Positions 370-41,099 of a DNA stretch of 64,000 nt are shown here, in pieces. Numbering within the stretch: the stretch's first letter is position 1; each line of letters begins with the position of its first letter. The stretch is taken from assembly GCA_041660605.1 (NCBI GenBank), contig JBAZWB010000002.1:1431-65430 (forward strand), written 5' to 3'. This DNA comes from Patescibacteria group bacterium. GTDB taxonomy: Bacteria; Patescibacteriota; Patescibacteriia; UBA10025; JAHIVO01. A program made the translations under genes and the position numbers. Below the pieces are notes generated by a model. That model was not told the origin of the DNA and made no database searches. It saw only the letters and a list, made by a program, of their open reading frames with translations.

Positions 370-1005
370 CTAAGAATGTAAAAAATAAAATAATCTATCG
401 CTATACTTTTTAATTCTCCTAATCCCCTTATGCAAGTCTCTCTTTTTCTGTTTTAATTGTTTTATAGTTTCAGTTTTTGACTGACTACTTAAAAAGTAGA
501 TTTTACTAGCTATAAATTCGTTATAAGTCTTACCTTTTGGTTGTGAAATACGGTGCTTAAATTCATTTGCCTGTGTTATATTTTCCTTAAGAATATCATC
601 ATTAATAATTTCGTTTAATAATTTGTATACTTTTGTCTTTTTTTTCACTTGGCTCATTCCCAATATTAAACTCTCGTTCACTTTTTCGATTGGCAATCCC
701 AACGAGAGAAAACAGTTTACTAATTGCATGCTTTTTTCCTTAAAAGTCGCAACTCGTAATATATAATTATGGTAATGATAATTAAAAAATAAAATTGGTA
801 AGGAAGATTGTGGGCCCCCTCTTTTTTTAAAAAATGATTTCAGTGACTTTTCAGCCTCAGGAAAAGTTCTTTTAGCTTCATCCTCATTTATTAATAATTC
901 TGTAATTAATTCAAAAAAGTCAGATAAAATTTTTTTTCTTTCTATCGACCACCCTCTTTTAGAAATATGAAAAAAATGAGATAACCTATAAGAGATTTTT
1001 GACAT
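370..1005 (-). CDS. hypothetical protein (211 aa), Lys/Asn-rich, no recognisable motif
   Basis: six-frame ORF, AT-rich composition unlike neighbouring dnaK; no competing ORF. Confidence 0.5.
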   Translation of the reverse strand: MSKISYRLSHFFHISKRGWSIERKKILSDFFELITELLINEDEAKRTFPEAEKSLKSFFKKRGGPQSSLPILFFNYHYHNYILRVATFKEKSMQLVNCFLSLGLPIEKVNESLILGMSQVKKKTKVYKLLNEIINDDILKENITQANEFKHRISQPKGKTYNEFIASKIYFLSSQSKTETIKQLKQKKRDLHKGIRRIKKYSDRLFYFLHS

Positions 1006-22176: not shown

Positions 22177-22255
22177 TGGTACCGCGTGTGGGATTCGAAC
22201 CCACGATCTCCTGGATGAGAACCAGGTGTCCTAGACCAAACTAGACGAACGCGGC
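22177..22255 (-). tRNA. tRNA-Glu (anticodon CUC), CCA encoded
   Basis: manual fold: acceptor GCCGCGU/ACGCGGU, D-arm GUCUAGUUUGGUCUAGGACA (cf. E. coli tRNA-Glu), anticodon stem CCUGG/CCAGG loop UUCUCAU, T-arm GUGGG-UUCGAAU-CCCAC. Confidence 0.85.
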
Positions 22256-22302
22256 ATGCGGGTAGGAAATCTGATATCACCCCCGGGCTACCTGCCCCGT
22301 AC

Positions 22303-22548
22303 TTATGAGCGGAGCGAATAAAGTGCGGGGGACGATAACGGCATAGAGTAGCTTTTTATTAATCGCTCTATTGCAATTCTCTTTTTCCAAGACTTTATCT
22401 GGCGTTCTCTTTTTCGCGCATCTGAATATGTTCTAAGCTCTTCACTAAAAACAAGCGCAACTGGCAGTCTAGATTTTGCATATTTTACTCCACCTCTTTG
22501 GTGCTTAATAATCCTTTGAGGTAAATCTTTCGTTGAACCAATATAATC
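22303..22548 (-). pseudogene. GIY-YIG nuclease (YhbQ/URI-like) gene remnant lacking the N-terminal GIY motif
   Basis: translation DYIGSTKDLPQRIIKHQRGGVKYAKSRLPVALVFSEELRTYSDARKRERQIKSWKKRIAIERLIK; upstream in-frame TAG, no Met; possible (TA)n slippage at the YIG junction. Confidence 0.55.
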
Positions 22549-22662
22549 CTATTTTTTGCCTACAATAAGCTTATCAAATAAGATTAAAAAAAATCAAGAG
22601 CTACAAAAAACCAGACCACATCTTCTGTCCCCTTTGCCCGGTATCAGTAGATACTCTTGATC

Positions 22663-39146: not shown

Positions 39147-39420
39147 GACGCACCCCCTTTCGAACCCCCGTTAATTTGAATAATTAAAATTTCTTCTTGG
39201 TATATAAATAAAAAAATACTATAAAAATCAGTAATAGCGCTAAAACAAATCCCTGTCCGCCGGTTACATTCATAATCTAATTTATGAGCAATTTATTATT
39301 ATTTGTGCAATAAAGCTTTTAATCAATATTCGTGATTACCTTAGAATTATAACAATTTCCGGAAAATAAGCAAATAGAAATGTGCATTATAAAATCGCAA
39401 TCTGATTAACAAAAAATCAA

Positions 39421-39493
39421 GAACTCTCTGGGTCGTGCCCCGCCATTCGGCGGGGCGACACCTCCGCTCCTTTGGAGCGGAGTGCTCTATGGC
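39421..39493. repeat. structured repeat copy A (two GC-rich hairpins; outer end duplicates tRNA-Lys 3' end)
   Basis: gaactctctgggtcgtgCCCCGCCattcGGCGGGGcgacaCCTCCGCTCCtttGGAGCGGAGtgctcta; inverted relative to copy B at 39871-39962. Confidence 0.6.
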
Positions 39494-39535
39494 TATATAA
39501 GTTGTGGATTGTTAATTGAGAATTTAAAAACTCTT

Positions 39536-39608
39536 TGGGTCGTGCAGGGCTCGAACCTGCGACACCCTGCTTAAAAGGCAGGTGCTCTACCAACTGAGCT
39601 AACGACCC
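39536..39608 (-). tRNA. tRNA-Lys (anticodon UUU), no encoded CCA
   Basis: manual fold GGGTCGT-TA-GCTCAGTTGGTAGAGC-A-CCTGC-CTTTTAA-GCAGG-GTGTC-GCAGGTTCGAGCCCTGC-ACGACCC-A. Confidence 0.9.
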
Positions 39609-39853
39609 AGAGAGTTTTTAATTAATCCTCCAATATAATGTTTACTTTTGTGCTTTTTAATTTCTTTTTCAAACCGCAACGCTTCGGTTTTAGTAGGAAA
39701 GGATTTCTTATAAACCAGACTTAGCGATGAACGAGCCCTTGTCGCTCGCGAACGGCCCTGAAAATGACGTTTCAATCTGTCGGTCAAATTACTCGTACTA
39801 CCTGTATAATACCCTAAATCTTTTTTGCTTTGAAGGATTTAGACATAATGCAT
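39599..39853 (-). pseudogene. GIY-YIG nuclease (YhbQ-like) gene interrupted by in-frame TAA at conserved Tyr of YVYIL (TAA at 39839-39841)
   Basis: translation MHYV*ILQSKKDLGYYTGSTSNLTDRLKRHFQGRS...SLSLVYKKSFPTKTEALRFEKEIKKHKSK; 3' end overlaps tRNA-Lys 5' end by 10 nt. Confidence 0.65.
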
Positions 39854-39870
39854 ATCTTTTTAGTTCTCCA

Positions 39871-39962
39871 CGATACCTCCGCTCCAAAGGAGCGGAGTGC
39901 TCTACTTCACCCCGCCCAGTCAGGGCGGGGCAAGCTGCCTGCCTACCGTAACCCAGAGAGCC
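39871..39962. repeat. structured repeat copy B (inverted partner of copy A)
   Basis: cgataCCTCCGCTCCaaaGGAGCGGAGtgctctacttcaCCCCGCCCagtcaGGGCGGGGcaagctgcctgcctaccgtaacccagagagcc. Confidence 0.6.
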
Positions 39963-40101
39963 AAGGCGGGAACAAACAGCCCATAAAATTTTAAATTTAT
40001 TTTTGTTATGAAAATATAGTAGCAGAATTGAAATAAATACGCAAGCCTCTTGACCTTGACTCCGTTTAGAAATTTTGAGTCTCAATCAATTTCTAATGGG
40101 G

Positions 40102-40131
40102 TTGACAAATAATCATTTTTTATGTTAACGT
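40102..40131 (+). promoter_or_regulatory. candidate promoter: TTGACA -35 with weak -10 (TAACGT) at 18 nt
   Basis: gttgacaaataatcattttttatgttaacgt in AT-rich leader upstream of OMP-like gene. Confidence 0.3.
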
Positions 40132-40184
40132 ATTATATTAAAAACAGAACCTTAATATAAAAACAGCACTAGGAGGTGCCTATA

Positions 40185-41099
40185 ATGAAACGCAGTATTG
40201 TTTTCTCATTTTTCATCATTTGCCTATTTTGGACAGGCTTAATGGCGACTGATTCAACGACTGCTAAGCTCTCAATAACCTGCTATGGCCAGCTGCAATT
40301 CATCAGTAAAGACCCTGTATTCCAATACCAGGGTTTCAATATGCGCCGATTGCGGCCATCGGTTATATACACACAGAACGATAAGCTATCTTTCACCGGC
40401 GAAGTGCAGATCGGCAGCGGCCTGAAACTTCTCAGGGCGCACTTTGATTACCAGGCGATTCCCGGCTACTTGTATCTCAAAGGCGGACAATTTCCAAACC
40501 GTTTGATGTTCTTCGAGTCATCGCCTACCCGCAAGTACTTCGTCCTCGTCAGTCACCTTGACTACTATATCGAGGACCAGAATCCGACGGGTATAGCAGC
40601 CTACGGCCACTACAAGTTCTTTGCTTGGGAGTTACAAGTAACAAACGGGACTGTTACCGGAGCACCAGACAATAACGAACAGAAAGAAGTAAACTTCTGG
40701 ACCGAATGGAAAATCTCGCACGCCATTTTGTTAAGCACCTGCCTACAGCGCGGCAGACAACTAATTGACGAAAGGACAACAGCCTGGATTCAACTGAAAA
40801 CCGAGTACCTTGGACTCAACAGTGAGATCGGGGCAATTAACCAATCTTACAGCACCTCTACCTGCGGATTCTACCTCAATAACAAATTCCAAATCAGTCA
40901 ATTTGTGGCAATCGCCGGCAGAGTCGCCTTGCCCGTTGATCACAGTGAAGTGGTCATGGCTAACGGCTATATCGCCCGGAATGATCTGGAATTTACGCCA
41001 GGAGTGATTGTCAGCAAGGACAATTTCACGGCCAAGCTGAATACCATTATAAGCAGAAACGAACCAAGGTATGCAGCGGAAATTCAGTTCATTTTCTAA
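40185..41099 (+). CDS. predicted outer-membrane beta-barrel-like protein (signal peptide; C-terminal ...YAAEIQFIF)
   Basis: AGGAGG SD 40171-40176; start ATG 40185 preferred over GTG 40176; signal peptide MKRSIVFSFFIICLFWTGLMA; alternating-hydrophobic C-terminus ending in Phe. Confidence 0.6.
   Translation: MKRSIVFSFFIICLFWTGLMATDSTTAKLSITCYGQLQFISKDPVFQYQGFNMRRLRPSVIYTQNDKLSFTGEVQIGSGLKLLRAHFDYQAIPGYLYLKGGQFPNRLMFFESSPTRKYFVLVSHLDYYIEDQNPTGIAAYGHYKFFAWELQVTNGTVTGAPDNNEQKEVNFWTEWKISHAILLSTCLQRGRQLIDERTTAWIQLKTEYLGLNSEIGAINQSYSTSTCGFYLNNKFQISQFVAIAGRVALPVDHSEVVMANGYIARNDLEFTPGVIVSKDNFTAKLNTIISRNEPRYAAEIQFIF

Follow-up and report, generated by a model that had tools for sequence, protein, structure and literature searches.

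The closest described counterpart of the locus studied here is SegB, a free-standing GIY-YIG nuclease from the transfer RNA (tRNA) gene cluster of phages T4 and T6. Its recognition site contains the T-psi-C motif, and SegB spreads itself along with the tRNA genes next to it (PMC2330249); a further effect of SegB is the tandem amplification of a unit formed by tRNA-Tyr and segB, via homology that the 5′ end of the tRNA shares with segB at its 3′ end (PMC13096335). The other reference point is the stand-alone prokaryotic Slx1-like group, described as the minimal form of the GIY-YIG fold, for which the tRNA passages of the same paper note just a fusion to a TrmH-like tRNA methyltransferase (PMC1564403). 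In the literature searched, these passages included, no genomic link of the UPF0213 group to tRNA pseudo-copies or hairpins was found. We have analyzed a 64,000-nt stretch (hereafter, the window) from a Patescibacteria group bacterium (contig JBAZWB010000002.1), where a GIY-YIG pseudogene and the tRNA-Lys(UUU) gene overlapping it lie between two pieces of a dead tRNA-Lys copy, X5′ and X3′. The locus is likely to be a decaying copy of a selfish nuclease cassette nested in tRNA.

Several features are shared with SegB. In both cases a GIY-YIG gene resides among tRNA genes, and while the SegB site includes the T-psi-C stem-loop, the junction of the open reading frame (ORF) is in the T loop here. 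Tandem units of a dead tRNA and the ORF, observed in the related loci L018 and L019 (contigs with relatives of the locus are designated by L numbers), resemble SegB-driven amplification, with the ORF 3′ end here being the tRNA 5′ end. Moreover, as with Seg-type genes, the gene is found in or next to its presumed target and is present or absent among syntenic relatives: L012 lacks both X5′ and ORF1 (the nuclease gene of the window type), L018 has an ORF remnant, and X3′ is polymorphic between L009 and L020. Unlike SegB, the protein has 84 amino acids (aa), all of them in the catalytic domain and none in a DNA-binding domain, and is assigned to the Slx1/UPF0213 branch instead of I-TevI/Seg; a cellular genome of the candidate phyla radiation (CPR), and not a phage, hosts it; the dead tRNA copy bears a conserved hairpin in place of the anticodon arm; and the ORF overlaps the tRNA, borrowing bases U8-A9-G10 as its stop codon. 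The minimal size and the absence of auxiliary domains are shared with UPF0213 proteins (E. coli YhbQ, BH0048, EF2693).

Two other known arrangements are similar in part. As in elements integrated into tRNA and transfer-messenger RNA (tmRNA) genes, the inserted DNA is flanked by parts of the RNA gene in duplicate, with the working gene preserved; one relative, L014, fits this description exactly. Unlike such elements, the cassettes have no integrase and are only 0.3–0.7 kb long, the duplicate accompanying ORF1 is the 5′ two-thirds of the tRNA and lies upstream of it, and X3′ is separated from the tRNA by 41 nt with no cargo between. As in split tRNAs of Nanoarchaeum and tRNAs with GIY-YIG group I introns in anticodon loops, tRNA-like pieces are parted by an ORF, GC-rich complementary segments are found at the break, and the outer ends can pair. 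Unlike these, the pieces have no anticodon loop, a complete tRNA-Lys is situated between them, and the 3′ piece can be dispensed with; Rfam detected no intron RNA fold at the locus. The split-tRNA or intron reading, prompted by the complementary hairpin loops and the end-paired fold, was rejected, as relatives do without X3′ or have only part of it.

On the minus strand the module is arranged as the presumed tRNA promoter, X5′, the GIY-YIG gene, tRNA-Lys, the spacer, and X3′ (Table 1). Both pieces contain a perfect hairpin, hp1, and a second GC-rich hairpin, hp2 or similar to it.

Table 1. Features of the tRNA-Lys module, with coordinates in the window.
Feature	Coordinates	Strand	Evidence and remarks
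X3′ (copy A), 3′ portion of dead tRNA-Lys copy	39422–39490	minus	Alignment to tRNA-Lys; homologues in L005, L009
hp2-like hairpin, GCCCCGCC-GAAU-GGCGGGGC	39437–39456	minus	At the T-arm place of X3′
hp1 in X3′, CUCCGCUCC-AAA-GGAGCGGAG	39462–39482	minus	At the anticodon-arm place
AT-rich spacer and tRNA trailer, 41 nt	39494–39534	minus	Trailer pairs with the tRNA leader
tRNA-Lys(UUU), functional	39535–39609	minus	ARAGORN; Rfam RF00005, 74.2 bits
GIY-YIG pseudogene (ORF1 type), 84 codons	39599–39853	minus	ATG 39853–39851; TAA 39841–39839, codon 5
Leader between variable-loop remnant and ATG	39854–39870	minus	Degenerated in the window; relatives hold the T-arm 5′ half here
X5′ (copy B), 5′ portion of dead tRNA-Lys copy	39871–39960	minus	Alignment to tRNA-Lys; cleaner homologues decisive
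hp1 in X5′, CUCCGCUCC-UUU-GGAGCGGAG	39877–39897	minus	Ends 23 nt before ATG
hp2, CCCCGCCC-UGACU-GGGCGGGG	39910–39930	minus	Inserted in the X5′ D loop
Possible older tRNA 5′ remnant, AUGGGCUGUUUGUUCC	39969–39984	minus	Just past the presumed promoter; weak, tentative
Presumed promoter TTGCGT, 17 nt, TACTAT	40016–40044	minus	Position matches TTGCCA-17-TAATAT/TAACAT upstream of the module in L004, L005, L009, L020, L012

Alignment to tRNA-Lys and to the relatives demonstrates that X5′ and X3′ are co-directional with the tRNA. X5′ consists of tRNA-Lys positions 1–26, with the anticodon arm replaced by hp1, followed by the variable loop and by what is left of the T-arm 5′ half. It reads as the leader CUCUC, UGGGUUAC (the 5′ acceptor strand, UGGGU..), a decayed D-arm insert, hp2, UGAAGUAGAGCA, hp1, and GUAUCG; the stretch following hp2 is GUAGAGCA, hp1 with the UUU loop and GUAUCG, after which the ORF comes. 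Its homologues are cleaner: L004 has a perfect tRNA 5′ half with hp1, L018 has two such copies, and inserts in the D loop are seen in L005, L009, and L020. The insertion point CAGCUUG|hp2|UGAAGUAGAGCA is also found in L005, L010, and L012. The stretch of L018 and L019 that matches the window leader follows the resident tRNA up into the T loop.

X3′ spans the D-arm 3′ side, hp1, the variable loop, a GC hairpin replacing the T arm, the acceptor 3′ strand, and the trailer, and reads on the minus strand as AUAGAGCA, hp1, GUGUC, the GC hairpin, ACGACCCA, and the trailer GAGAGUU. Both the anticodon and T arms are thus replaced, with the single-stranded linkers of tRNA-Lys (UAGAGCA, GUGUCG, ACGACCCA) retained exactly, together with the trailer. 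The outer end of X3′ duplicates the 3′ end of the tRNA and its trailer (25 nt, 84% identity).

The hp1 hairpin (CTCCGCTCC-N3-GGAGCGGAG) has two matches in 64 kb, compared to 0.01 expected, and the two copies are perfectly complementary, loop included. Sixteen perfect GC-rich hairpins are present in the whole window, and the four most GC-rich long stems are all at the tRNA-Lys locus. The 34-nt block CGAYAC-hp1-TGCTCTA forms a direct repeat (88% identity) at 39456–39489 and 39871–39904; inverted between X5′ and X3′ are just the palindromic 21-nt hp1 core and the 10-nt outer end (CTCTCTGGGT and ACCCAGAGAG).

The ORF reads MHYV*ILQSKKDLGYYTGST, and its stop codon UAG (39601–39599) is formed by tRNA bases U8-A9-G10, so that the ORF and the tRNA overlap by 10–11 nt and the last ORF codons are the acceptor strand of the tRNA. 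When the in-frame TAA is read as Tyr, residues 1–71 match PF01541 (E = 3.8e-17; 62.8 bits at the cut-off of 22.6). Tyr occupies the codon-5 position in every relative, and with TAA there the first Tyr of the GIY strand is not intact in the window. As TAA terminates 17 of 25 long ORFs in the window and hence is the usual stop codon, recoding of codon 5 is unlikely, and this possibility was rejected. The JGI (Joint Genome Institute) gene call P0001 is 100% identical to the protein and comprises 58 aa only, starting at residue 27; this shortening fits the same TAA in a separately recorded JGI contig. The in-frame TAA is probably genuine, and with this stop at the first catalytic-motif Tyr the gene is judged recently inactivated and the nuclease dead in the window genome.

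Four relatives (P0002, P0003, P0013, P0016) are 60–65% identical to the window protein and intact, and the closest relatives are labelled Patescibacteria or Parcubacteria, which points to a CPR bacterium as the source of the window. The best-matching solved structures are those of UPF0213 proteins BH0048 (1zg2, E = 5.8e-12) and EF2693, with 1ywl at 6e-3, followed by eukaryotic SLX1 chains; the NCBIfam group I intron endonuclease score is far too low (17 bits at the cut-off of 56). Judged by sequence, this is a stand-alone, single-domain Slx1-like/UPF0213 GIY-YIG protein of 84 aa, outside the I-TevI/Seg branch. The intact ORF1 is under purifying selection, the ratio of nonsynonymous to synonymous substitution rates (dN/dS) being 0.097 for L004 and L005. 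A protein profile search yielded at least 475 relatives, and the family is broad, mostly single-domain, and distributed across many phyla. Among 128 homologue sequences, the tRNA overlap (LAQLVEHS-type read-through, C-terminal GR) is recognisable in a handful, which makes it unusable as a statistic. Scans of IMG/VR with the protein profile and the hp1 pattern, and tblastn against GenBank phages, produced no match, leaving a phage origin unsupported.

These observations agree with much of the preliminary description of the locus, made from the window alone. It had recognized the tRNA-Lys(UUU) and the small YhbQ-like gene (now identified by ARAGORN, Rfam, and the BH0048 structure), the perfect hairpin and the second GC hairpin in both copies, the tRNA 3′ end with its flank duplicated at the outer end of copy A, TAA instead of the conserved Tyr, and the overlap of the ORF with the tRNA. 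It had also taken A and B for inverted copies of one 70–90 bp element; instead, they are the 3′ and 5′ portions of a tRNA-Lys pseudo-copy devoid of the anticodon arm. No further copies of the flank repeats or of hp1 were found in the 64-kb window; beyond it, the design recurs in related genomes.

On tRNA-Lys, the design is present in six further loci besides the window. L004 and L005 were found by protein homology, L009, L010, and L012 by the hp1 pattern, and L018, L019 (on tRNA-Arg), and L020 by profile search. The exact 25-base hp1 pattern had no matches in the GTDB genome set, and the relaxed pattern TAGAGCACTCCGC-N3-9-GCGGAGGT had seven in genome and metagenome collections. Four of the seven (Ruminococcus contigs L006–L008, and L011) were discarded as chance matches in high-GC coding DNA without tRNAs; each of the remaining three (L009, L010, L012) has tRNA-Lys and a small GIY-YIG gene.

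L004 and L005 are short contigs encoding the two closest intact proteins (63–65% identity). L004 contains a perfect tRNA-Lys 5′ half, CUCCGC-UUU-GCGGAG, GUGUC, and the ORF, whose last codons form the 5′ end of the next tRNA. L005 contains X5′ with D-arm inserts and hp2, the ORF, tRNA-Lys, the spacer, and X3′ lacking the acceptor strand. In both, a duplicate of 40–60 nt of the ORF 3′ end lies upstream of X5′. In L009, a Patescibacteria genome, the order is X5′-ORF-tRNA-X3′, the T arm in X3′ is nearly normal, and ORF1 is frameshifted. L020, with flanks approximately 98% identical to those of L009, has an intact ORF and no X3′; the difference between the two is a 93-nt indel corresponding to X3′ and situated between direct repeats. 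L018 carries two tandem identical units [tRNA 1–26, hp1, GUGUC, ACAGGUUUCAGAG], one ahead of the full ORF and the second ahead of an ORF remnant, followed by a complete tRNA-Lys. In L010 and L012, a second GIY-YIG subfamily (ORF2) follows the tRNA and runs into an uninterrupted pseudo-tRNA with hp2 and hp1; L012 lacks X5′ and ORF1 at the same pilin–DnaB locus.

All loci with visible flanks (the window, L009, L012, L018, L020) adjoin the DnaB gene, with a pilin gene on the other side except in L009. In the window and L018, the direction of the module is away from DnaB; in L009, L020, and L012, it is the opposite, with the module facing DnaB.

A common architecture emerges from the comparison. 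All 14 hp1 copies are framed by UAGAGCA (the D-arm 3′ side and base 26) and by G(U/G)(G/A)U(C/U), which belongs to the variable loop; as aligned, hp1 occupies exactly the place of the anticodon arm. The flanks of hp1 agree with whichever tRNA is resident in the lineage (Lys or Arg), and the CUCCG/CGGAG stem is common to all, three of the loci having been selected by this stem. In most copies hp1 has a stem of 6–9 bp and a loop of 3–4 nt; that of L019 can also be drawn as a 6-bp stem with a 7-nt loop. The outer stem pairs vary, yet stay paired (C-G, U-A, and A-U in L019). The loops are complementary in the window (UUU/AAA) and L009 (CUAU/AUAG), and identical in L005. The distance from the hp1 end to ATG is 17–24 nt in eight loci of the ORF1 clade, the tmRNA-linked one included, and in the second subfamily hp1 is placed after the stop codon instead.

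The ORF1 stop codon coincides with tRNA U8-A9-G10 in the window, L004, L005, L018, and L020. In L018 and L019, X5′ equals the resident tRNA at positions 1–26 and again beginning with 44, the identity reaching into the T loop; since the ORF starts there, the ORF junction is the T loop. In the loci compared, [tRNA 1–26, hp1, variable loop, T-arm 5′ half, ORF] constitutes a unit that can be repeated, with a complete tRNA downstream. This unit is single, tandem, degraded, or absent across the loci, and X3′ on the one hand and X5′ with ORF1 on the other are gained or lost independently of each other. ORF1 is broken by the nonsense codon in the window and by the frameshift in L009, with remnants in L018 and L019.

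Relatives have also been observed on other RNA genes, although this association rests on approximately 12 loci and is not a survey. The same two-unit layout with an ORF remnant is present in L019 (Elusimicrobia) on tRNA-Arg(UCU), the hairpins being CUCCGAUU-UUU-AAUCGGAG and CUCCGAUU-UUC-AAUCGGAG. A looser version in L014, one of the more distant relatives, is adjacent to a tmRNA gene, identified by Rfam, and is built as [tmRNA, element, 18-nt copy of the 3′ end]: past the ORF stop, 17 of 18 nt agree with the tmRNA 3′ end, starting with its T loop, and a hp1-like hairpin lies 24 nt upstream of the ORF. In L016, likewise more distant, a related GIY-YIG gene is located beside a partial tRNA-Leu duplicate among GC hairpins, and in L013, beside a partial duplicate of an RNA gene without assigned type. 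The window itself contains a second GIY-YIG pseudogene (22300–22556, minus strand; PF01541, E = 1e-10), 5′-truncated so that the N-terminal strand is missing. At the 3′ end, the pseudogene is joined to a tRNA-Glu-like 5′ fragment AUGCCGUUAUCGUC, past which a hp1-like GC hairpin with GCUCCGCUC and then tRNA-Glu(CUC) at 22177–22255 are found.

Two of these contigs show additional hairpins. In L014, a repeated hairpin block occupies 1120–1500, between the tmRNA gene and the ORF, where the assembly has a run of N. In L016, a perfect GC palindrome with a 23-bp stem and GAA loop is located at 755–803, 33 nt before ATG.

Under the mechanism we propose, the ORF would have entered a tRNA copy at the T loop, the functional tRNA being kept as a second copy. 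The nuclease would break tRNA-coding DNA, by analogy with phage T4/T6 SegB at the T-psi-C motif, and repair and unequal recombination between tRNA-derived repeats would copy, amplify, invert, or delete the unit. The dead tRNA copy would serve as the 5′ leader transcribed from the tRNA promoter, and hp1 would travel with the ORF. The idea of a decaying tRNA-associated homing-like cassette, put forward in the preliminary description, is thereby retained in essence, given the intact relatives, tandem arrays, presence/absence differences, and the nonsense codon. The flanks do not represent transposon-like terminal repeats. Speculatively, X3′ could be a relic of a second-subfamily element after loss of its ORF; L012 holds ORF2 and a pseudo-tRNA in this place.

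As for hp1, it may reduce homology between the repeats and so make deletion rarer, form a hairpin in the mRNA leader that buries the only GGAGG, or provide a handle for a structure-specific enzyme. A bolder possibility, which we regard as unlikely, is that hp1 and the other GC palindromes are the partner of the nuclease, which as a minimal Slx1-like, structure-specific enzyme would recognize an extruded hairpin or cruciform of the dead tRNA copy, with the universally conserved D- and T-arm sequences of tRNA and tmRNA genes acting as portable homology arms in the copying of the unit. If true, this would constitute a structure-guided class of homing, mobile across tRNA species and phyla, and the first biological role for the widespread UPF0213/YhbQ-type proteins.

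A number of observations weigh against the selfish cassette. Classical homing sites are destroyed by the insertion; here, the T loop and the anticodon arm are both intact in the working tRNA beside the ORF, and this tRNA would stay a target. All 84 aa of the protein belong to the catalytic domain, and since there is no DNA-binding or other extra domain, sequence-specific homing is not expected from the protein alone; both its cleavage activity and its target are proposed here by analogy. The same CUCCG/CGGAG stem of hp1 across phyla is left without explanation by the model, and in L009, L010, and L012 conservation of hp1 is by construction, as the search pattern required its stem. The CPR loci with tRNA-Lys and visible flanks share one orthologous locus, and therefore vertical inheritance with local rearrangement could explain much of what we see; no fully empty site was found among the loci compared. 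Finally, no paper describing such an arrangement was found in the literature on GIY-YIG proteins with tRNA, tmRNA, CPR/Patescibacteria, YhbQ, or UPF0213.

Other explanations of the repeats around the gene have been considered. Site-specific integration would require a circle of approximately 415 bp [leader, ORF1, tRNA-Lys, spacer], carrying a single 34-nt site UAGAGCA-hp1-GUGUCG, to have recombined with a matching site of a complete pseudo-tRNA lacking the anticodon, leaving two direct repeats. Indeed, direct repeats of 34 nt, palindromic at the centre, stand on both sides of the cassette, the same bracket with the 400–430 nt period is present in L005 and L009, and L010 and L012 possess uninterrupted hp1-bearing pseudo-tRNAs. 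Still, we hold this scenario to be quite unlikely: no recombinase is encoded in or beside the module, the GIY-YIG pseudogene being the only ORF with a domain match between the pilin gene and a 307-aa gene; X5′ occurs without X3′ in L018, L019, and L020, and therefore the two-sided bracket is not obligatory; and the duplicate of the ORF 3′ end (40–60 nt) upstream of X5′ in L004 and L005 fits unequal recombination better than it would fit an insertion at a naive site. Also, the spacer of 3–4 nt is too short for known tyrosine-recombinase core sites. The classic model of integration at the tRNA 3′ end, suggested in the preliminary description by the duplicated end, does not fit either, because there is no integrase and the distance from the tRNA to the duplicated end is only 41 nt. 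Extremely unlikely, in our opinion, is a transposon-like element or miniature inverted-repeat transposable element (MITE) in which terminal inverted repeats of 70–90 bp enclose tRNA-Lys and the nuclease gene. The perfect 10-nt outer inverted repeat, the inverted 21-nt hp1 copies, and the two orientations of the module relative to DnaB in related genomes would be consistent with it, but the outer inverted repeat is the acceptor stem with the leader–trailer extension and is found in the working tRNA too, those parts of the two flanks that derive from tRNA share one direction and are not equivalent (a 5′ part and a 3′ part), no further copies exist in 64 kb, and neither a transposase nor a target-site duplication is observed.

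The strong folding of the flanks could alternatively indicate a function at the RNA level, with the flanks forming a tRNA-like bracket that directs processing, or hp1 serving as a cis-regulatory leader hairpin. Compared to shuffled controls, the two flanking pieces fold far better (z = –5.4 and –3.3), and in the fold of the 566-nt transcript the outer ends are paired, as are the two hp1 copies (z = –8.3). The complementary hp1 loops in the window and L009, the variable and still paired outer stem, and the fixed position of hp1 at 17–24 nt before ATG, with the only GGAGG upstream of the ORF in its 3′ arm, point in the same direction. However, Rfam 15 covariance models recognize no RNA family other than tRNA and tmRNA at the gathering thresholds, with nothing plausible at E up to 10 across 39200–40200; L018, L019, and L020 have no X3′, and that of L005 is without its acceptor strand, and therefore the two-part tRNA-like bracket is not conserved; the loops in L005 are identical and not complementary; and the GGAGG–AUG spacing of 16–22 nt is too long for a normal ribosome-binding site, for which reason hp1 is not claimed as a Shine-Dalgarno-sequestering hairpin. 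Perfect DNA palindromes acquire loop flips and symmetric changes even with no selection on RNA. Hence we give the RNA-level explanation a low probability; its cis-regulatory version is compatible with the selfish cassette. Two independent structured RNA genes, the alternative offered in the preliminary description, are not supported, given the lack of Rfam matches and an X3′ that is dispensable and decays differently in each lineage; the structured-RNA idea possibly survives just for hp1 as a cis element. The locus might, at last, involve no selfish element at all, tRNA-Lys having undergone ordinary tandem duplication, and decay, beside a housekeeping gene of the Slx1/YhbQ type driven by the tRNA promoter. 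This would agree with the single syntenic locus of all CPR cases with visible flanks, the broad, mostly single-domain family in many phyla, and purifying selection on ORF1. On the other hand, a dead copy with hp1 and an ORF occurs on another tRNA in another phylum (L019); the tmRNA case of L014 has a hp1-like hairpin and the tmRNA 3′ end in duplicate; further fusions of relatives involve partial tRNA-Leu and tRNA-Glu duplicates and that of one unassigned RNA gene; and the two pseudogenes of the window, the remnants in L018 and L019, and the frameshift in L009 constitute too frequent a loss for a housekeeping gene. Replacement of the anticodon arm by one and the same perfect hairpin, with the linkers kept exactly, is moreover not what random decay produces, and we find this explanation very unlikely.

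The selfish cassette, if accepted, suggests a much smaller version of a tRNA-riding GIY-YIG gene, residing in cellular genomes, namely those of uncultured ultra-small bacteria and of at least one further phylum. Compared to known genes of this kind, it would be distinguished by a minimal Slx1-type enzyme, the overlap with the tRNA, and a conserved hairpin replacing the anticodon arm. The cassette appears compact, as the tRNA promoter, the dead tRNA copy as leader, and tRNA U8-A9-G10 as stop codon would all be used by it. It offers a concrete context for stand-alone Slx1/UPF0213 proteins and would account for tRNA-like debris and GC hairpins near tRNA genes in AT-rich CPR genomes, which can confuse annotation and break assemblies. 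For the window genome, the practical consequence is small, the element being dead.

The tRNA-Lys genes have a peculiarity of their own. Pairing of the leader and the trailer beyond the acceptor stem involves 12–14 of 14 positions in six tRNA-Lys loci (window 39515–39625, L005, L009, L010, L012, L020), with 12 of 14 in the window, compared to 1–7 of 14 in other tRNAs. The paired sequence differs lineage by lineage, and together with the acceptor stem it forms a continuous helix of approximately 21–23 bp. This helix may be a processing stem of the RNase III type or a DNA inverted repeat able to mediate inversion.

Upstream of X5′, the presumed promoter was not called by a consensus promoter scan and would be a weak counterpart of the element seen in relatives. 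The place of the possible older tRNA remnant is taken by AUAUGGGCUGUU.. in L009 and L020, and by GAGCCCGUUAGCU in L004. Additional tRNA 5′ fragments, GGGACGUUAGCUCAGCUUA-hp2-UAAAGUAGAGCAG and GCGCGCCUAUAGCUCAAUUGGUAGA, are found in L010 at 640–800 (minus strand), upstream of tRNA-Lys(CUU). The pseudo-tRNA following ORF2 in the same contig has an encoded CCA end and an acceptor strand that mismatches the neighbouring tRNA; these fragments and the mismatched pseudo-tRNA suggest repeated or transferred insertions.

The window sequence equals that of ENA contig ERZ27249449:k141_729649 (960 kb). The genes around the module encode a type IV secretion system (T4SS)-type pilin, a P-type ATPase, DnaB, YbaB, and RecR. 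The interval between the module and DnaB varies: the window has the gene of the 307-aa protein (40176–41099), which has no Pfam match, L018 has an 88-aa gene, and L009, L012, and L020 have nothing. Directly upstream of the pilin gene, a 29-aa hydrophobic ORF MNVTGGQGFVLALLLIFIVFFYLYTKKKF is located at 39184–39273 on the minus strand. In L002 and L018, a gene of 29 aa is called at the matching place, and from L012 a similar peptide can be read; this is probably a conserved small membrane protein.

L002 (Logan SRR18595301), a contig from another sample, is identical to the window and ends at a point corresponding to window position 39589, exactly at TAGAGCAC in the tRNA D arm, a sequence common to the tRNA, X5′, and X3′. 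Such an end suggests a branch of the assembly graph, possibly reflecting strain variants that differ upstream of the tRNA.

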